From: an uncultured Candidatus Saccharibacteria bacterium
Lineage (GTDB): Bacteria; Patescibacteriota; Minisyncoccia; Phycocordibacterales; DATDWN01
Reading direction: 5' to 3'
Length of the DNA: 64,000 bases
Assembly (NCBI GenBank): GCA_964426735.1
Contig: CAYRRP010000003.1
Location: 13,378-77,377, forward strand
Shown here one piece after another: positions 19,509 to 62,933 of this stretch. The position numbers and the translations under genes are program-made. The number at the start of each line of letters is the position of its first letter. Within the stretch, counting starts at the first letter, position 1. The notes below the pieces were generated by a model, which saw only the letters and a program-made list of their open reading frames with translations, ran no database searches and was not told the DNA's origin.

Positions 19509-19598
19509 GGAGGAATCGCATAGCGGCCTAGTGCAGCGGTTTACTAAACCGCCATACTCGAAAGAGTATCGAGAGTTCGAATCTCTCTTCCTCCGCCA
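19509..19598 (+). tRNA. type II (long variable arm) tRNA; anticodon loop TTACTAA parses as ACU (Ser-like, unusual A34)
   Basis: GGAGGAA acceptor, D-arm GCAT/GTGC, anticodon stem GCGGT/ACCGC with 7-nt loop TTACTAA, variable hairpin ATACTC-GAAA-GAGTAT, T-arm GAGAG-TTCGAAT-CTCTC, encoded CCA. A second Ser(GCU) tRNA exists at 19036. Confidence 0.6.
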
Positions 19599-30890: not shown

Positions 30891-30894
30891 AGAG

Positions 30895-30966
30895 TCCACC
30901 CACCACGACTCGAACGTGGGACCCCCGAGGTATAAGCTCGATGCTCTAACCAACTGAGCTATGGGT
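30895..30966 (-). tRNA. tRNA-Ile (anticodon TAT)
   Basis: Reverse complement CCACCCATAGCTCAGTTGGTTAGAGCATCGAGCTTATACCTCGGGGGTCCCACGTTCGAGTCGTGGTGGGTGGA: acceptor CCACCCA/TGGGTGG, D-arm GCTC/GAGC, anticodon loop CTTATAC (UAU), T-arm CCACG-TTCGAGT-CGTGG. Confidence 0.65.
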
Positions 30967-31019
30967 GGACTCTATTATTTTCAAAACAAAATCTATATAA
31001 GCTCGAGTCACGAGTCAAA

Positions 31020-34245: not shown

Positions 34246-34702
34246 ACTTGCTCAGAATATTTCTGATCAAATTGGGGGTGCCAGGTTTTGACATAGTCTG
34301 CATCCGTTCGCGCACTACAGAGTTCCAGTCAACTCTTTAAACATCTGGAAACTATACGTGTAAACAATACTGTTGCACGAGCAAAAGCTTCTGTTTCTCC
34401 ATATTTTGGAGTTAACAACTTTGCTTTCTCTTACGCACGAGCTTAATTTAAGTTTCGTCCCTAGGAGGGGGTGATACATCCGATATCTCATACGATGTCT
34501 CATTCATATAACTGTGAGGTCCGGTCACTTCCCTGTTTCAGGTTGTGACCTAAAAAATGAAACTCGCCTTTTTCTTGTTTTGTTTGTTTTATAGAGAAAA
34601 AGTCTAAACGTTAAAACATTCTATGTAGTGTAGACCCGTTCGTATTCTCTCTATGCACGTGGCTTCGATGTCACCACTTCCACAAATTACAAAAAAAACT
34701 GC
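34246..34702 (+). ncRNA. ssrA: candidate tmRNA (ssrA), 3' end uncertain
   Basis: Immediately downstream of smpB. 5' end GGGGGUGCCAGGUUUUGACAUAG matches the tmRNA acceptor-plus-GGxUUCGAC consensus. Possible 3' strand CACUUCC+A gives G3-U70. T-loop-like UUCGAUG at 34669-34675. Possible tag ORF ...GVNNFAFSYARA-stop around 34405-34440. Confidence 0.45.
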
Positions 34703-52491: not shown

Positions 52492-52814
52492 GAATTGATT
52501 AAAAAAATACTCTTTTTTGTAAGAGGTAGTAAAACCTTAAACAAAAACTAGATGTAAGAGAAAAACTCTCACGTGCGCTCTATACTATACAAAATGAGGC
52601 AATATGTCAAACGTTTAGTAAGCAGTCACAAGTCAATAGTCTGCAGTATAAAAACTGAAATCCTAAAAAGGAGAAAACGGTCAATAATATGACAATTCTA
52701 CGTAATACTGCAGGAATATAACAAAATCCGCCCCCTTCGAGGCAGATTTAGGTGTAATTTGAAGTAAAAATAAGAGCGACCTTTCCCCTCTGGGAACTGC
52801 CGCTCTCATCGACA

Positions 52815-53141
52815 CTAGCGATTAGTTCTGGTATTAATACCCAATTCTTCGTACATTGAAGCCAAGCAATCCATATTTCTTCCATAATCTGGGTCGCCGC
52901 AGATTTCTGGATGTTGATACGAATAATGCTTTTCGTACTGTTTATCGAGGATGTTGAGAGCTTCTTCAAGCTTACCACCCTCTTGAGCAAAAACACAAAG
53001 ACTGCCGATTGCAACTTGGCCTTTAAAGCAAAATTTGTCGACGAGTATCTCCACTCTCCCGATACATTCCGCAGGAATCTTGCCTCGTAAAAACGCCTGC
53101 ATTCTGACATCTAGATTTGAAAGCGTTGTTATTGTGTCCAT
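52815..53141 (-). CDS. hypothetical protein P5 (108 aa) inserted between rplB and rpsS
   Basis: Interrupts conserved rplB-rpsS adjacency. Elevated GC. Upstream terminator hairpin, TTGACA-type promoter and AGGAGG 4 nt before ATG. Confidence 0.4.
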   Translation of the reverse strand: MDTITTLSNLDVRMQAFLRGKIPAECIGRVEILVDKFCFKGQVAIGSLCVFAQEGGKLEEALNILDKQYEKHYSYQHPEICGDPDYGRNMDCLASMYEELGINTRTNR

Positions 53142-53145
53142 TGGA

Positions 53146-53215
53146 CCTCCTTTTACACCTTATAATACTGATTCAAAATGTCAAACAAAAAACACCCTTT
53201 CGGGTACTTTTTGTT
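53146..53215 (-). promoter_or_regulatory. terminator hairpin, promoter and SD for P5
   Basis: Minus-sense AAAAAGTACCCGAAAGGGTGTTTTTTGTTTGACATTTTGAATCAGTATTATAAGGTGTAAAAGGAGGTCCA-ATG. Confidence 0.45.
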
Positions 53216-53229
53216 AAAACCAATTAAAT

Positions 53230-53290
53230 TGCTTCAGATGCTAGGCGGACGAGGGATTTGGGTCGAGACGTACTGAACGTACGGCGAGAA
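53230..53290 (-). repeat. F-family hairpin core (GGGATTTGGGTCGAGACGTACTGAACGTACGGCGAGAATCAAATCC) downstream of rplB
   Basis: Same GACGTAC...GTACGGCG palindromic core as F1 and F2, in a 7-bp outer stem. Confidence 0.35.
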
Positions 53291-53337
53291 TCAAATCCTG
53301 AAGTCCAACAACGCAGATGGAGTAATTTTATTGTGTT

Positions 53338-55845: not shown

Positions 55846-56041
55846 ATGATTATTATATTGATTTTGAAGACATTTTTCGGACAGTAATGAGAAAAGGTTT
55901 TTCTCAACATTGCCCATCACTAGTCCTCATAAAAAATAGCCTAAATGGCGATTTGGCAATACTAGCAGATAATGATTTTTATTTCAAGGGGTATAGATAC
56001 AAAAAGAGGTTTGCAAAAGCAAACCTCTCCGAAGCAGACTT

Positions 56042-56311
56042 TCACTCTGTAATAGGACAATTTTGCCCCGTCAGGTACCCACCTCCAAGCAACCATCCGG
56101 TAGGACCAAGCTCCACTATACCAGTACAGACGCACCCTTGGTTTTGACACGTACCTACATGAGTACCGACGTCAAGTCGAAACTCATTAGGAATTACTAC
56201 CCAGGCACCAATTTGGTGCCCAAGTCGAGCAGAAGCATCTTCTACTCTTTTACGACGTCTTTCATCGTCTGGATTTAAAACCATTTTTTCCAAACAGCCT
56301 CCTATACTCAT
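56042..56311 (-). CDS. small Cys-rich hypothetical protein P6 (80-89 aa) inserted between rpsJ and rplC
   Basis: Breaks the rpsJ-rplC adjacency. GC-rich. AGGAGG lies inside the first 6 codons, 13 nt before an internal ATG (MVLNPDD). Motif CQNQGCVCTG. Flanked by terminator hairpins. Confidence 0.35.
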   Translation of the reverse strand: MSIGGCLEKMVLNPDDERRRKRVEDASARLGHQIGAWVVIPNEFRLDVGTHVGTCQNQGCVCTGIVELGPTGWLLGGGYLTGQNCPITE

Positions 56312-56372
56312 ATAAGCACATATTTATATATTTGAAAACAAAAACCACCCTTTCGGGTAGTTTTTGTGTATA

Positions 56373-56756
56373 TTAGATGATTTTTACATCAATATTAACA
56401 CCAGATGGTAGAGAGAGATTTGTGAGTGATTCCATAATCTTTGGGGTCGGATTAAGGATATCAATCAATCGCTTATGAGTTCTCATTTCAAACTGCTCTC
56501 GAGCGTTTTTATACACAAACGAAGCTCGGTTTACTGTGTATTTCTTGATCTCAGTTGGAAGTGGGATTGGACCCAAAACCTTTGCATCGTATCGAAGAGC
56601 AGTATCCATGATCTGTCGTACTGAGATATCGAGTACTTTGTACTCATATGCTCGTACTCGGATTCGCAATTTAGAAATTGCATCCTCTTTTGCAGCTTTT
56701 TTAGGAGCCTTTTTTGTTGTTGTTTCTTTCGTTGCCATTACGGAGTAGCTTACCAA
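56373..56756 (-). CDS. rpsJ: 30S ribosomal protein S10
   Basis: RIRVRAYEYKVLD...PIPLPT..KKYTVNRASFVYKNAREQFEMRTHKRLIDI. Confidence 0.9.
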   Translation of the reverse strand: MVSYSVMATKETTTKKAPKKAAKEDAISKLRIRVRAYEYKVLDISVRQIMDTALRYDAKVLGPIPLPTEIKKYTVNRASFVYKNAREQFEMRTHKRLIDILNPTPKIMESLTNLSLPSGVNIDVKII

Positions 56757-56774
56757 ACAATTAAACTATTGGCA

Positions 56775-56815
56775 AGTAAGCGAAAACCCGCACGAAGACA
56801 AAGTCTTCGTGCGGG
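56775..56815. terminator. terminator CACCCGCACGAAGAC-TTTG-TCTTCGTGCGGGTTTTCG
   Basis: 15-bp stem between P7 and rpsJ. Confidence 0.5.
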
Positions 56816-56820
56816 TGACT

Positions 56821-57010
56821 TTAAAGAGGTGTTTTGAGTCTTTCTGTGTACTCCTTAAGGGCAGCATCCGCAACCCCAGCAGCAACACTCGCAACATCTT
56901 CAGGGTACACATACCGCTGTCCTAAGGGACGACTCAAGTTACTGTTGCTCAACACAGCACACAGAACCCGAAGCCAAATCTCTGACCCTTCTTGAGTATG
57001 AATCGACATA
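56821..57010 (-). CDS. small hypothetical protein P7 (63 aa from MSIHTQEG) between tuf and rpsJ
   Basis: Own TTGACA-16-TATATT promoter and AGGAG 8 nt before ATG. Elevated GC. Confidence 0.4.
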
Positions 57011-57014
57011 TTTT

Positions 57015-57085
57015 TTCTCCTCTTTTGAATATACAATATTTGCATTTTATGTCAACAAAAAACCACCCGAAGATGGTTTTTTGTT
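57015..57085 (-). promoter_or_regulatory. terminator hairpin, promoter and SD for P7
   Basis: Minus-sense CAAAAAACCATCTTCGGGTGGTTTTTTGTTGACATAAAATGCAAATATTGTATATTCAAAAGAGGAGAAAAAAT-ATG. Confidence 0.45.
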
Positions 57086-57117
57086 TGACACTACGAAAGT
57101 TAAGAATCGGTTTCAAA

Positions 57118-57235
57118 TTTGAGACAAGGTCGCGGATAAAGCAAAAACCAATTCCGGAGGTGTACATGTGGTACATTGACGGAATTGGTTTTTGTCTTTA
57201 GCCGATGAGATTGGCCAAATTTGGAAGCGCTGTGG
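57118..57235 (-). repeat. terminator-module repeat family F, copy F3, directly after the tuf stop
   Basis: AAGGTCGCGGATAAAGCAAAAACCAATTCCG-GAGGTGTACATGTGGTACATTGAC-GGAATTGGTTTTTGTCTTTAGCCGATGAGATTGGCCAAATTTGGAAG. 15-bp outer stem with compensatory differences versus F1 and F2. Confidence 0.45.
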
Positions 57236-58432
57236 TTATGCCACTATCTTAGTAACAACACCTGCGCCAACAGTCTTACCTCCCTCTCGAATCGCAAATC
57301 GAGTATTGTCCTCAAGCGCAACTGGAGCAATCAATTTAACTTTGAATGTTGCTGTGTCTCCTGGCATAACCATTTCAACACCTTCTTTCAAAGTCACATC
57401 TCCGGTAACGTCTGTAGTTCGGATGTAGAACTGTGGTTTGTAACCTGAGAAGAATGGAGTATGTCGTCCACCTTCTTCTTTCTTAAGAACGTAAACCTCA
57501 GCTTCGAATTCTGTATGAGGATTTACTGATTTTGGTTTAGCAAGAACCTGTCCTCGAGAAATATCTTCTTTCTTCGCACCTCGGAGAAGAATACCTGCGT
57601 TGTCTCCTGCTTGTCCTGAATCGAGTGATTTGTTGAACATTTCGATACCAGTCACAGTAAACTTAGTGATATCCTTGAGACCAACGATTTCGATTTCTTC
57701 ACCTACTTTGATAACACCTCGTTCGATACGTCCTGTTACCACTGTTCCTCGTCCCTCAATAGAGAAGATGTCTTCTACTGGCATAAGGAATGGTTTATCC
57801 AAATCTCGTTCTGGCATTGGAATATATGTATCGAGTGCATTTGCTAGCTCCAATACTTTCTTTGACCATTCATCGTTGTTATCTGCTGCTTCGAGAGCTT
57901 TGAGTGCTGATCCTCGGATAACTGGTGCGTTATCACCATCAAATCCGTTCTTTGAAAGGAGCTCTCGAACTTCAGCTTCTACAAGGTCGATAAGATCATT
58001 ATCTGGTACCATGTCGCATTTGTTCAAAAATACGATAATCTTTGGTACACCCACTTGTTTTGCCAAAAGTACGTGTTCTCGAGTCTGAGGCATCGCACCG
58101 TCTGTAGCCGCTACCACAAGCACTGCACCGTCCATCTGAGCAGCACCAGTAATCATGTTTTTAATGTAGTCAGCGTGACCTGGCGCATCGATGTGAGCGT
58201 AGTGTCGAGTTGGTGTTGAGTACTCGTTGTGAGAAAGCGCAATAGTAATTCCTCGTGCTTTTTCTTCTGGAGCTGAGTCGATTTCACCTACTCCTTTGAT
58301 TTTAGATGAATATCCTTCTCCTGCTCGACCAAGTACGGTCAAGATAGCCGCTGTTAATGTTGTCTTACCGTGGTCAACGTGTCCAATGGTACCTACGTTG
58401 AGGTGTGGTTTTGATCGATCAAAATCTGCCAT
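57236..58432 (-). CDS. tuf: elongation factor Tu
   Basis: [29 protein letters not shown]. Full-length 398 aa. Confidence 0.95.
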
Positions 58433-58602
58433 ATATTTATATAAATTATACGTATAAAATTACTAATAATTGCCATTTTGGAAACTCCAAAAACTTGACA
58501 CTCGAGAGAAGCCAAATTTTGGGAACTTCTGCAAAACATCACCTGCGGGCGATGCCAATAAATATAAACGAAATAGGCACAAGAGTCAAACGAAATAGGA
58601 GC

Positions 58603-58890
58603 TTATATCAATATATCTGCTTTCAATTTTGCAACTTCTTCTTTTAAGAGGAGTGTAAAGGTTGGAATTTTGCGTTCAAGAAAAAGTACCACATCTTCAG
58701 GAGTGGTTGCATCTTCATTGAGAAGCAGATCGAACTCATCTTGCTCAACATCCGAGAGAATATCAAGAGAGCGCACTAAAATCGCTTGGTATATCAAGCG
58801 TCCAATACGATCAACCATGTCTATTTGCTCTTCTTGAGGTAAGTCACCAAGTCCCCATTCAGATACTATGTCTTTTGATAAAGGATTCAT
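58603..58890 (-). CDS. small acidic hypothetical protein (95 aa)
   Basis: ORF immediately downstream of the giant gene, pI clearly acidic. No motif. Confidence 0.35.
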   Translation of the reverse strand: MNPLSKDIVSEWGLGDLPQEEQIDMVDRIGRLIYQAILVRSLDILSDVEQDEFDLLLNEDATTPEDVVLFLERKIPTFTLLLKEEVAKLKADILI

Positions 58891-58891
58891 A

Positions 58892-61800
58892 TTATTTTTT
58901 CAGTTTAAAGAACTTGATATTCTTTTCCATTGCCTTTTTAGCCTCATCAAATGCAAGCTCAAAATTAGTCTTCCCGGCAGCACTGAATATAGATTTCTCT
59001 CTACCTATCTCATATTGATGACCAAATGCACCATCTACAAGCTGTGTACTACCGATTCTTTGTCCATTAAGTAATACCGTAATATCGTCACCTTTCTGGA
59101 ATATATCGATTTGACCTCCTTTATACTGCACAGGGAGATGATAGTCAAACAAGCTTTTTCTCACCGAGTCATCAAGTGACGCCAGTGTTCTTGTAAAAAA
59201 CTTTGCATATTCCTTACGAATTGAGGCATCCTCGCTAAACTGATACTCTGATTTAAGTGGCATTTTACCCCTCACAATATCTTCTATATTTTTAAAATCA
59301 GGTGACGGTATTGCAATTTCAACACCATATGAAGTGATTGCTGCAATTTTTCCATGTTGCTCAAGTATTGCTGTTTGTGGTGACACTGAAGAATCAATAG
59401 TACTGTTTTTTTCAACAAGAGATGCTCCAGTAGTCGCAGTATCTGCAGCAAGAGATTCTTTTGATACTGATGATATTTTTAATTCTGGAACATGTTCTGT
59501 TACAGGCTGTGCAGTTACGGGTGATACTGCCTGAGGAATATTTTTTGTAACTACAGGTTTTTCTGTATCTACTAATTCCACTGAAGTAACCTTACCATCC
59601 GCATCAAACATTTTTCCTGCATATGGTTTTACTACCCCATTACTGTTCATCAATATTTCCGGTTTCCCGCTACCATCAGGCACCAAAGAGAGATTTCCTT
59701 CTGCATCAATTGCAAGTTGTTCCCCTTGAAAACGAAAAGCGCTCTCCGCAACCTGACCTGGTTTAAAAAGACCCAAGTCAATAGCAATCTTTTGAGAAGA
59801 TTGTGCAAAAAGTTTTTCAAGAGCTGGAGTAAGTTTCTGACCTGCTACTGCACGTTTCAATGTATCGATAGTATCAATAAATCCTTTACTTGAAAGTTCT
59901 ACCTCAACCGGGTTTACTGACACAGGAGCAACTTGTTCAACAGCAGACATGGTTGTTTTTTCAAGTGGAGCTTTTTGTGCAGGAGCATCCTCTTTAATTA
60001 ACTTATTCCACCACGAAGATTTTGTTGTGGTCGGAGTATCGACAGAAGCATGTGGAGTTGTGAGCGTATCATGCATAGCGTTTATCCCTACACCAGTACC
60101 GATAGATGTAGCACCTCCTGCTGCAACCATAAGCGCAGCCTTTTTCAAACGATCACGTTTTGCTTGTATTTCTGCTTCTGATTCATACACCTCGAAATCT
60201 CCAATCTTTTCGTCTTGTTGTGTATCATCAATTGTTGCAAAATTTTTCAACGCTTTTTCCTTTTCGACAAGCATCTTTTCTCGCTGTTGTTTATCTACAA
60301 CAGACCCAGCAAGCTTTGCCCCCATCACACCAGTGAGACCACGCGCCGCTCGCATAGATGCAGTTGCAGCAAAACCTCCTACACCACCTGAGACAAGAGA
60401 AAAGAATGCTGAGGATAGTGCAACACGTGCCACAACAGGCAACCGTGCCCATTTATCCATAGATTTCGCTATAATACCTTTCTCTTTTTCAGGGATAGCT
60501 TCTGCGATCAGTGCCGTGAGTGCGTCTCGCTCTTTTTTAAACTGCTCCATTACTCCGACATCAAGATGTCTTACTGATTTTTTCTCGATAATAGAAAATT
60601 CATGTGATCGAGAAGTTGTTTCCTCTACCTCAACATGACGACGTGCAATAAAATTTCTTAATGCACGACCTGCATCTATGTATTCTTTTTTAGCACTGAG
60701 ATACGCTTGATCTATATCCCCTTCAGCATCAGGACGTCGTTTAGACGGAACACCGAGTTCAGTCATGATTTTCTCATACACTTTCTTACTTGCACGAATC
60801 TTTTCTTTACGAAGAGCTTCTTGTGCTGCAAAGTTTTTAAGTGACTCTTCCAGTTTAGACGAAAGCTCTTTTTCTATATTTTCTGACTGTTCTTGGGTTA
60901 TTGGACCTGCTGGCTCTTGATACGCAGGGTCAAGAAATTGACGTGCTGCATTTTGAGAAATATCAATCCGCTGAGCCTTAAGCGCAGCTTCACTTACGCG
61001 TTCATCAAGTGTTTTTTGTCGTGGAACAACAGAAGGTTGCACGTATACATTTTTACTCGTTGTATTATTTAAAAGATTGCTCAGATTTTCTTTTGTAACG
61101 TCATCCAACACATCGGATGTTTTAATTAATAGTTCCGCTTGCTCTTTTGTAATATTTTTATCTCTCAGTGAGTATATGAGAATAGAAAGAACGGCTGGTC
61201 TTTCCATAGTCTCTTTCATTTTTTCCAACTCATCTATCACTTGACCAGGCACCTCAAACTCCTGAGTTTTTTCAACATTTTTTGTAATACGTGGTGTTTT
61301 AATTATCTGGTAACCTGTCTCAGTTTTGATTCCCAGACCTTCTTTAACCAATAAATCTAATACATACTTAACAAGCTCGGTATTTTCTTTATTAATAACA
61401 CCCCCTACAGATCGAATATAATTTTCTGGAGTTAGAGGTAACTTATTTCCCTGAGCATCTTCGAGATTTTGAGCTGCCCAATTTTCAGCACCAATACGAA
61501 TACCATCTTTCATCATTGCTTCAATTGATGAAGGATTTGTTTTGTTTTCATAGGGTTTTATAAGGTCTGCTACGGTACGAGCATCTTTTTCCTTTTGCTG
61601 TTGTATAACATCTTCTTGAGTACCCTGCTCTTCATGAACACTTTGCATTAGATATGAATACTCACTTGGAGATACGACTCCTTCAATGAGGGGTAGATTT
61701 TTAATAATATCCTCAATTGTTTCGCCATCAACTTTAAAACGAAAAAATGTTTTTAATTTTGTTATTACACTTTTTTGTTCAGCATATTTGTGTATCAAAT

Positions 61801-62692
61801 TATTAAACGCTGTGACCACCTTTTCATACGCAGAATGCTTAGGTTTTTCTGCCATACGAGGATCCATCATCAATGCACGATCTACCTTTGATTGAATCTT
61901 ACCTTTCAACGTTTCATCAGTCATATGAGGATGCATCATAAATGCATTATCCACTTTGGCTTCAGTGTTATATTGTGAAGCATCGTCAACTGTTTTTTTT
62001 GATTGAGTTAGTGAAGGATGTAAACCGAGTTGACCTAAAAACGCTTCACCCGAAGAATCTATCCCCTCAATATTTCCTTTGTTTACTATATCCTCAACCC
62101 ACGAAGCCCCGTTTGCCAAACTTTCCTTCACTCGCTCGGTGCGTGAAGGAAATTGCTCTGAACGATCAGAACCTCCAATAAAACCAAAAGCTGGCATAAA
62201 TGTTCCATTTTCACCACTCTTTAAAAGATTTCTATCCAACAGACTTTCGAGCGCCCTATTGATACGTATACGAAGATTTGACCTTCTTCCAGAACGAGGA
62301 TCTCCTTCGCCTTTATTTCGTAAGATTGTATTAATAATCTGATCAGGTGTGAGCGGAGTCTTTCTTGTAATACTCATAACCTCTTTTTCTATATCAGAAA
62401 TTGGAGACTGTCCTGCAGTAATTTCTACAGGCTTTGATTCATTTTTTTGTATAGGTTGAACAGGAACACGTATTGGGACTATTTTTTTAGGAAGAGTAGA
62501 TACCTTATCATTCAAAATTTTTCTAGATTCTTCTGAGGCTTGTGTGATCCCTTGTTTAATTTCTTGTTCTTCCAACACACCAAAAGGACTTTTGGCTCCT
62601 GTATCTTCGAGCATTTCCGCAAGCTCTTTCAGATATTTTTCACGATCGGGGTTAAGTGGTTCTCTTTCGTATATTTTCTGAGAATCTTCCAT
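58892..62692 (-). CDS. giant hypothetical protein (1266 aa) with central pair of TM helices
   Basis: Continuous ORF. Glu/Lys-rich regions. Two hydrophobic helices near aa 745-800 (ALSSAFFSLVSGGVGGFAATASM / AALMVAAGGATSIGTGVGINAMH). No recognisable catalytic motif. Lies between fusA and tuf. Confidence 0.5.
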   Translation of the reverse strand: MEDSQKIYEREPLNPDREKYLKELAEMLEDTGAKSPFGVLEEQEIKQGITQASEESRKILNDKVSTLPKKIVPIRVPVQPIQKNESKPVEITAGQSPISDIEKEVMSITRKTPLTPDQIINTILRNKGEGDPRSGRRSNLRIRINRALESLLDRNLLKSGENGTFMPAFGFIGGSDRSEQFPSRTERVKESLANGASWVEDIVNKGNIEGIDSSGEAFLGQLGLHPSLTQSKKTVDDASQYNTEAKVDNAFMMHPHMTDETLKGKIQSKVDRALMMDPRMAEKPKHSAYEKVVTAFNNLIHKYAEQKSVITKLKTFFRFKVDGETIEDIIKNLPLIEGVVSPSEYSYLMQSVHEEQGTQEDVIQQQKEKDARTVADLIKPYENKTNPSSIEAMMKDGIRIGAENWAAQNLEDAQGNKLPLTPENYIRSVGGVINKENTELVKYVLDLLVKEGLGIKTETGYQIIKTPRITKNVEKTQEFEVPGQVIDELEKMKETMERPAVLSILIYSLRDKNITKEQAELLIKTSDVLDDVTKENLSNLLNNTTSKNVYVQPSVVPRQKTLDERVSEAALKAQRIDISQNAARQFLDPAYQEPAGPITQEQSENIEKELSSKLEESLKNFAAQEALRKEKIRASKKVYEKIMTELGVPSKRRPDAEGDIDQAYLSAKKEYIDAGRALRNFIARRHVEVEETTSRSHEFSIIEKKSVRHLDVGVMEQFKKERDALTALIAEAIPEKEKGIIAKSMDKWARLPVVARVALSSAFFSLVSGGVGGFAATASMRAARGLTGVMGAKLAGSVVDKQQREKMLVEKEKALKNFATIDDTQQDEKIGDFEVYESEAEIQAKRDRLKKAALMVAAGGATSIGTGVGINAMHDTLTTPHASVDTPTTTKSSWWNKLIKEDAPAQKAPLEKTTMSAVEQVAPVSVNPVEVELSSKGFIDTIDTLKRAVAGQKLTPALEKLFAQSSQKIAIDLGLFKPGQVAESAFRFQGEQLAIDAEGNLSLVPDGSGKPEILMNSNGVVKPYAGKMFDADGKVTSVELVDTEKPVVTKNIPQAVSPVTAQPVTEHVPELKISSVSKESLAADTATTGASLVEKNSTIDSSVSPQTAILEQHGKIAAITSYGVEIAIPSPDFKNIEDIVRGKMPLKSEYQFSEDASIRKEYAKFFTRTLASLDDSVRKSLFDYHLPVQYKGGQIDIFQKGDDITVLLNGQRIGSTQLVDGAFGHQYEIGREKSIFSAAGKTNFELAFDEAKKAMEKNIKFFKLKK

Positions 62693-62933
62693 GTGTATAT
62701 TGTATCTCGGTATCGACTAACGACGCAATGAAAAACTCTCCTTTTTGTGTACAAAAAACAAAACTGACATTTTCTGTCAGTCTTGTTTTTTTAATTAAGA
62801 TAGTGCTGCACTAAAGCATTCAGACTTGGATGAAATCCGAGGCGGACGAAGAAAATAATGTGAGCCTGCCTAAGTGCGCAGGTGAACATTATTTTACTGA
62901 AGTCCAACAAAGGAGTTCGCCAAGTATGGATGC

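Follow-up and report, generated by a model that had tools for sequence, protein, structure and literature searches.

What is a gene for a 1266-amino acid (aa) protein doing between fusA and tuf, the genes for elongation factors G and Tu (EF-G and EF-Tu), whose junction is tight in most bacteria? The question was raised by a window of 64,000 nucleotides (nt), meaning the whole stretch of DNA that was analysed (GenBank assembly GCA_964426735.1, contig CAYRRP010000003.1, positions 13,378 to 77,377). The minus-strand order in the open reading frame (ORF) list was fusA, a 242-nt spacer, the 1266-aa ORF, a 95-aa ORF, a 170-nt spacer, tuf, rpsJ, and the S10 genes. The 1266-aa ORF, whose product is here called the large protein or the giant, occupied 58892..62692 (ATG start, stop codon included), with the 3' part of fusA upstream (62934 to beyond 64000) and tuf downstream (57236..58432), all three on the minus strand. 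An original prediction made from the sequence alone had given the coordinates and description of these 1266-aa and acidic 95-aa ORFs separating fusA and tuf correctly. It had also called the large protein an orphan and its gene an insertion. The large ORF is instead a genuine gene of an undescribed family, paired with a DUF5663 gene and inherited at this position within one clade.

A gene family, its DUF5663 partner and its seat

The large ORF was uninterrupted and 100% identical in Logan assemblies of two different runs, SRR14271366 and SRR14271372, made independently of each other, and was also intact in an NCBI contig of 143.6 kb, giving three assemblies in all. The interruption in a corrected assembly that the original prediction had offered as its own refutation was therefore not seen. 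Compared with its closest relative, L003 (L- and P-numbers are locus and protein labels in this analysis), the large gene had a ratio of nonsynonymous to synonymous substitution rates (dN/dS) of 0.27 by the Nei-Gojobori method. Because the frame is intact in several assemblies and its dN/dS is 0.27 overall and 0.11–0.19 in the core, it is taken to be a real gene, and there is very little doubt about its reality, family, pairing, synteny and rate taken jointly. An in-frame TTG at 62728 was ruled out as an alternative start, as a TAG follows three codons on. The large protein was rich in Lys (9.6%) and Glu (9.2%) and contained no Cys; its N-terminus reads MEDSQKIYEREPLNPD and its C-terminus ...NIKFFKLKK. 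Neither the large gene nor the 95-aa gene had a paralogue within the window.

A word-indexed homology search with the whole large protein returned only the large protein itself, and Pfam, NCBIfam, and PDB-sequence searches gave nothing significant. An exhaustive phmmer search with aa 67–1266 against 1.84 billion cluster representatives recovered 147 homologues at E ≤ 1e-3, 94 at E ≤ 1e-10, and 20 at E ≤ 1e-30, so the protein is no orphan; it had appeared to be one because of its very fast evolutionary rate. Members were mostly 700–1400 aa long and shared a core corresponding to aa ~600–1070 of the giant plus the C-terminus, the shared architecture being defined from an alignment of 21 members. 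Per-member Pfam scans of 30–36 members found no consistent domain even at E ≤ 10, and the invariant residues of the family were mainly Gly, Pro, Leu, and Asn. The large protein thus belongs to a hitherto undescribed family that evolves very fast and is restricted to one clade of Parcubacteria/Paceibacteria (Zambryskibacteria-like). Candidate-phyla genomes commonly contain fast-evolving families that are uncharacterised, and the value of this one is that of a lead and not of a discovery.

The 95-aa acidic gene (58603..58890, minus strand) begins with an ATG 1 nt past the TAA of the large gene. Residues 8–92 of its product aligned colinearly to positions 1–83 of the 84 positions in the PF18908 model, as did the orthologue in L004. 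In direct scans the window copy scored 14.6 bits (E 0.05) and the L004 orthologue 21.1, with the gathering cut-off at 23.7. The protein had 116 homologues of ~95–100 aa, most of which, including the window protein (P0002), carry a precomputed PF18908 (PF18908.7) assignment, and some of which are named ‘DUF5663 domain-containing protein’ in Zambryskibacteria or Paceibacterota; the positional orthologues in L090 and L102 were unmarked matches to PF18908. By these profile matches the 95-aa ORF is a member of the DUF5663 family, not a frame without relatives. Window-clade copies form a divergent branch, below the gathering cut-off in the scan made here, with the length usual for the family. The DUF5663 proteins were well conserved and acidic (median isoelectric point, pI, 4.3; net charge −10). 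A literature search found no paper mentioning DUF5663 and nothing relevant on fusA-tuf in Parcubacteria, and the pairing gives this Pfam family its first genomic context.

Loci were collected by way of tuf, of family members, of a metagenome scan with a single degenerate pattern (which contributed nine additional loci) and, in reverse, of DUF5663 proteins, and all were scanned with hidden Markov models (HMMs) of both families. A DUF5663 gene lay directly downstream of the family gene in 23 of 23 distinct loci that held either gene. The spacer between the two was 1–7 nt in 11 of the 18 loci in which it was measured, a spacing that suggests that the DUF5663 gene is usually translationally coupled to the large gene. 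Wherever a flank was visible, fusA lay upstream and/or tuf downstream, as in L102 (Parcubacteria bacterium C7867-006); the sole exception was L089, where the pair adjoins UvrD and RsmA genes. Neither gene occurred within 10 kb in the remaining tuf loci, which came from further Parcubacteria lineages and from other phyla. The two-gene module is an ancestral, vertically inherited trait of one clade, with EF-Tu at least ~83% identical to that of the window. Checking the neighbourhood in related genomes, as the original prediction had advised, thus recovered both the module and its fusA/tuf setting, and what had been taken for an insertion and a peculiarity of this genome is a two-gene module in fixed synteny, which keeps its position throughout the clade in which the family occurs. 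The features that define the family (basic helices, domain B, and a downstream DUF5663 gene, to which the long form adds a membrane cassette and domain A, described below) were all present in the window copy.

The prediction's attribution to a candidate phyla radiation (CPR) episymbiont agreed with the homology, which points to Patescibacteria/Parcubacteria: the nearest tuf loci and the DUF5663 homologues carry the names Zambryskibacteria, Paceibacterota or Parcubacteria. Its premise that fusA-tuf order is almost invariant fails in this phylum. In 20 of the 21 closest loci with both genes, the two were more than 400 bp and up to 6.3 kb apart, with varied cargo between them. Across Patescibacteria the junction serves as a general, permissive site for cargo, and this bears on operon-based annotation and on marker-gene synteny. 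Cargo seen elsewhere included an Ig-like Kre9_KNH protein (L031), an ABC ATPase (L052), and several genes each in L015 and L017.

The rate of the large protein stood apart from that of its surroundings. Between L003 and the window the flanking DNA was ~89–94% identical; EF-Tu, EF-G, and S10 were 99–100% identical (fusA 99%) and DUF5663 97%. The large protein was 66–68% identical in alignable parts, and aa ~350–560 had been replaced. Nei-Gojobori dN for the same pair was 0.002 for tuf, 0.007 for fusA, 0.023 for DUF5663, and 0.246 for the large gene, the last being ~100 times that of tuf. By region, dN/dS of the large gene was 0.11–0.19 at aa 600–1000 and 0.4–0.67 at aa 200–300 and 1000–1200, and no 100-aa interval exceeded 1. 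In genomes with EF-Tu at 87–91%, EF-G at 86–95%, and DUF5663 at 60–87% identity, the large protein was 26–46% identical.

Domain map, topology and short forms

The variable N-terminal region (aa 1–600; 60893..62692, minus strand, as for all parts below) had family conservation of 0.1–0.3. Near its start lies a short motif, F-G-V-L-E-E-Q (aa 37–43; 62564..62584), with the family consensus [FL][DG][VI]LxxQ; 29 of 121 members had this consensus in their first 200 aa, and 2 of 121 had it in a control region. N-terminal modules were distributed mosaically among closer relatives, and between L003 and the window the region differed by indel replacement, with dN/dS up to 0.42. A winged helix-turn-helix fold was considered for the modules at aa ~100–175 and ~420–470 and was not supported (best relevant PDB-sequence match BlaI, E 7.6; Pfam nil). 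The region also carried two tandem K-V-D-(N/R)-A-(F/L)-M-M-x-P-x-M motifs (aa 245–285; 61838–61960). L003 had three copies of the K-V-D-x-A-x-M-M-x-P-x-M motif, and P0021, P0023, and P0024 had similar single copies; the repeat could be a linear docking motif.

The N-terminal region is followed by a conserved basic helical region (aa 601–752; 60437..60892; pI 8.7) with family conservation of 0.45–0.53, modelled by AlphaFold2 (AF2) as helices with a predicted local distance difference test score (pLDDT) of 80–90. It terminates in P-E-K-E-K-G-I-I-x-K-x-x-x-K-W. Then come a hydrophobic Gly/Ala-rich block 1 (aa 753–780; 60353..60436) with R-x-x-R-G running to aa 785, a charged loop (aa 781–851; 60140..60352; family median 72 aa, Arg 6.5%), and the last transmembrane segment (aa 852–873; 60074..60139) with a Gly-zipper-like A-A-G-G-A-T-S-I-G-T-G-V-G. 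By Kyte-Doolittle hydropathy the only hydrophobic stretches of the giant were aa 748–780 (peak 1.64) and aa 852–870 (peak 1.47), ~60–70% along the chain. The earlier description of a large, charged protein with a central membrane anchor and without a recognisable domain is supported.

Beyond the membrane segment, a Thr/Pro/Ser-rich stalk (aa 874–924; 59921..60073; AF2 pLDDT <50; across the family Pro 11.4%, Thr 8.7%, Ser 9.3%, Arg 1.6%) leads to conserved domain A (aa 925–1035; 59588..59920), the best-conserved part of the family (0.5–0.62), with motifs VELSSKGFIDT, LGLFKPG..ESA, and KMFDA (LGLYKPG..ESA and MFDA in the family alignment) and 1.2% Arg. A variable Pro/Thr/Val-rich linker (aa 1036–1118; 59339..59587; AF2 pLDDT <50; dN/dS 0.44–0.67 against L003) joins it to conserved domain B (aa 1119–1266; 58895..59338), with motifs PLK.EYQF, Y.GG.I.V.QKG, and LLNG.KIG.

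An AF2 model of aa 590–1266 built on a 30-sequence alignment had a mean pLDDT of 67.6, with confident juxtamembrane helices and domains A and B. In a model of aa 925–1266, domains A and B each exceeded a pLDDT of 90 on either side of a disordered linker; domain A was modelled as a small alpha/beta unit, and domain B as two helices, a five-strand beta meander, and a C-terminal helix. Foldseek gave no match below E 0.08 for the 677-aa and 342-aa C-terminal models against PDB or for the 342-aa model against BFVD. Profile searches against PDB sequences with two N-terminal modules, the 660-aa core, and domain B gave nothing significant. Membership of domain B in the SpoA/FliN family (PF01052) was not supported, as that model was unmatched in 36 members even at E ≤ 10. 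A likeness to it is a lead only: the strand-turn LLNG-x-x-IG-x-G is reminiscent of the ‘NG..IA.GE’ hairpin of FliN, weak and non-significant profile matches repeatedly include three FliN PDB entries (E 0.27–1.7), and the FliM-FliN SpoA chain 4yxc_B appears in Foldseek without significance (E 1.2, probability 0.10), but the LLNG motif equally matches beta-galactosidase and CopA fragments.

Among 121 full-length-like members, none had a hydrophobic 12-mer in the first ~40 aa, hence no signal peptide by this measure, and because of this the N-terminal region is predicted to be cytoplasmic. Across 43 parsed members, block 1 had a median length of 29 aa and 3.5 Lys+Arg in the 15-aa flank before it vs. 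2.4 after it; the last membrane segment had 5.2 before and 0.74 after. By the positive-inside rule, these counts suggest that block 1 is a re-entrant or double short hairpin, that the charged loop is cytoplasmic, and that the C-terminal ~400 aa are outside. P0036 has a polar loop inserted midway through block 1, as would suit the tip of a hairpin. Arg made up 1.2–1.6% of the stalk, domain A, and the linker vs. 3.8–6.5% on the N-side of the last membrane segment, and 3.2% of domain B. From the charge bias and the Arg depletion, the stalk and domain A of long forms are most likely outside the cell. The giant had no LPXTG sorting signal and no S-layer homology (SLH) or other wall-binding domain, and 30–36 relatives had no Pfam domain.

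Three complete and independent short forms were found: L005 (414 aa), P0103 (513 aa, in L100), and P0120 (557 aa, in L101). They had no hydrophobic segment and no domain A, and they kept the basic helices and domain B; the N-terminal motif was also present in the L005 form. Each confirmed short-form gene was followed within a few nt by a DUF5663 gene. A probable fourth short form is encoded by a 482-aa gene in an ENA contig. Because the short forms keep the helices, domain B, and DUF5663, the conserved function of the module is independent of membrane anchoring and of surface exposure, and the natural occurrence of long (membrane-anchored) and short (soluble) forms points to the functional core. 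As a separate observation, small HicA-toxin-like genes lay just 3' of the DUF5663 gene in two short-form loci (L100, 2813–3040; L101, 2433–2660), and another lay between rpsJ and rplC in a third genome (ENA contig BjHKoF2M, 8800–9036).

Possible roles of the pair

The module appeared to be set apart from its neighbours in expression. A terminator-like hairpin with 17-nt arms, 94% complementary and flanked by A and T runs, lay downstream of the fusA stop (62753..62791, minus strand). A consensus scan placed a promoter-like TTGACT-17-TATATT, which is weak evidence, between the DUF5663 gene and tuf (58561..58589, minus strand). The start codon, ATG at 62692, had no Shine-Dalgarno sequence before it; the hexamer TACAAT ends 6 nt upstream, a placement compatible with a leaderless start of the large gene. 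The codon adaptation index (CAI) against ribosomal-protein genes was 0.53 for the large gene and 0.46 for DUF5663, typical of ordinary window genes, and 0.71–0.76 for tuf, fusA, and ribosomal proteins, including some outside the reference set. Since its codon adaptation is that of ordinary genes, the module is unlike a highly expressed translation gene; its expression is probably ordinary in level and separate from that of fusA and tuf.

The preferred reading, held tentatively and at a little below even confidence, is that of a modular scaffold, non-enzymatic and anchored in the membrane: the large protein would act in this way as a complex with DUF5663. The two proteins would be made in roughly equal amounts, the basic scaffold (pI 8.7 in the helical region, vs. 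a median of 4.3 for DUF5663) and its acidic partner forming a stoichiometric complex. The N-terminal [FL][DG][VI]LxxQ would act as a docking motif, and the N-terminal modules would be exchangeable, fast-evolving, and cytoplasmic. The functional core would consist of that motif, the N-terminal modules, the basic helices, domain B, and DUF5663, because the same parts survive in the membrane-less short forms. The long-form cassette between the helices and domain B (Gly-rich hairpin, charged loop, transmembrane segment, Thr/Pro stalk, and domain A) would tether the complex to the cell membrane, exposing the stalk and domain A. A non-enzymatic role is suggested by the lack of a domain match in 30–36 members and by invariant residues that are mainly Gly, Pro, Leu, and Asn.

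A surface protein for contact with a host or partner cell, the role that the original prediction had raised, would account for several of the same observations. The N-terminus would be inside and the C-terminal ~390 aa displayed, binding a host structure and diverging in an arms race. Positive-inside statistics do put the C-terminus outside, the stalk and linkers are rich in Thr, Pro, and Ser and poor in Arg, evolution of the C-terminal part is fastest in the linker and at the start of domain B (dN/dS 0.44–0.67), the protein as a whole evolves very fast, and other Patescibacteria have a surface-type Ig-like protein at the same junction (L031). The main argument against a host adhesin as the core function comes from the short forms: without membrane segment or signal peptide they retain both domain B and the DUF5663 gene, and exposure is therefore not needed for the conserved function. 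Moreover, the N-terminal half, which has no signal peptide, varies at least as much and is mosaic, dN/dS stays below 1 in all 100-aa intervals, and conservation is highest in domain A, the part most likely to be exposed. Pfam, Foldseek, and reading of the C-terminus revealed no adhesin, lectin, Ig, SLH, or LPXTG feature. A surface role is accordingly rated as rather unlikely. A translation-linked factor, acting on ribosomes or elongation factors and in long forms perhaps tethering translation to the membrane, would explain why the fusA-tuf position is conserved across the clade and would suit a basic, helical conserved region with a small acidic partner. It is nevertheless improbable, as codon usage is average and unlike that of the neighbours, the terminator-like hairpin and the promoter-like site separate the module from fusA and tuf, one member (L089) lies outside the str cluster beside UvrD and RsmA genes, and a dN ~100 times that of EF-Tu is unlike translation components. 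Unrelated cargo at the same junction in related lineages also makes the site look permissive, not functional.

Two further explanations were already contradicted by the comparisons above. The idea that foreign or mobile DNA recently entered the str operon of this genome draws on the variable cargo that the fusA-tuf junction often holds in Patescibacteria, but the same family and partner occur at the same site in relatives with EF-Tu 83–99% identical. The GC content of the module (0.35–0.43) was inside the range of the window, a repeat search found no direct or inverted repeats bracketing it, and PHROG and PADLOC searches gave no match; such an insertion is very improbable. An assembly artefact or non-coding open frame, for which nothing speaks except the missing annotation, is scarcely credible in the face of an identical intact ORF in independent assemblies, purifying selection, 147 homologues with conserved motifs, and confident AF2 domains.

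Several points weigh against the scaffold reading in turn. The proposed complex is drawn from pairing and coupling, which are genomic inferences only, and ‘scaffold’ was reached by exclusion. The module's conserved position beside translation genes might reflect a role linked to translation. Only consensus matches underlie the promoter and terminator calls, promoter-like sites were not enriched over shuffles, and the CAI is a soft measure in a small and weakly biased genome. The membrane region was poorly modelled by AF2 (pLDDT 30–60). A C-terminus outside the cell would, awkwardly, put domain B outside in long forms and inside in short forms, and a C-terminus inside would violate the positive-inside statistics.

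By analogy from general knowledge, the architecture of the proposed scaffold recalls RodZ, MapZ/LocZ, and FimV/HubP, which likewise have a signal-less cytoplasmic N-terminus, Pro-rich linkers, a membrane anchor, a conserved C-terminal domain borne on a flexible stalk, a fast-evolving middle between conserved ends, and no enzymatic domain. The large protein showed no similarity to any of them in sequence or fold, and it differs in its hairpin plus one membrane segment and in its two novel domains. To our knowledge, an obligatory DUF5663 partner and soluble short forms have no counterpart in these proteins. Both the DUF5663 pairing and the conserved position between the genes for EF-G and EF-Tu appear to be undescribed, and the large protein matches no known family or fold.

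Most genes of CPR bacteria have no assigned function, and how these cells organise their envelope and attach to partners is an open question. An apparent singleton is now a testable unit with at least 147 sequence clusters, a fixed partner, a fixed seat, and a domain map. A bolder reading, which is unlikely as a whole, would make the pair a lineage-specific Parcubacteria membrane machine with two new folds and a conflict-like speed of evolution: an envelope or host-interface organiser whose exposed domain A would touch the partner cell, whose cytoplasmic mosaic modules would recruit lineage-specific effectors, and whose seat could stem from a regulatory link to growth rate.

Other features of the window and related loci

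The S10/str cluster of the window (minus strand) had unusually long spacers: rplB/rpsS, 830 bp (52500–53330); rpsJ/rplC, 450 bp (55920–56373); and tuf/rpsJ, 480 bp (56760–57236). They held small, poorly conserved ORFs of 108 aa (52815–53141), 89 aa (56042–56311; Cys-rich and 61% identical in L003), and 74 aa (56821–57045). L084 and L086 had similar S10/str spacers with small unknown ORFs. A hairpin with a 14-bp stem lay just ahead of rpsJ (56816–56786), and a TTGACA-16-TATATT at 57055–57028. Roughly 40 nt past the tuf stop, an inverted repeat with 24-nt arms, 83% complementary around a 5-nt loop (57142–57194), is likely to be the tuf terminator.

Parcubacteria-like records of metagenome-assembled genomes (L003, L004, and other TPA_asm records, placed by EF-Tu, EF-G, and synteny) were titled uncultured Candidatus Saccharibacteria, Gammaproteobacteria or Bdellovibrionales; these automatic titles look unreliable.

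The window also contained tRNA-Ile(TAT) and a transfer-messenger RNA (tmRNA), with 30894–30968 (minus strand) and 34274–34685 (plus strand) as the ranges listed with these RNAs. ARAGORN additionally called a tRNA-Ser with anticodon ACT at 19509–19598 (plus strand), unreported by the Rfam gathering scan, which may be atypical or false.

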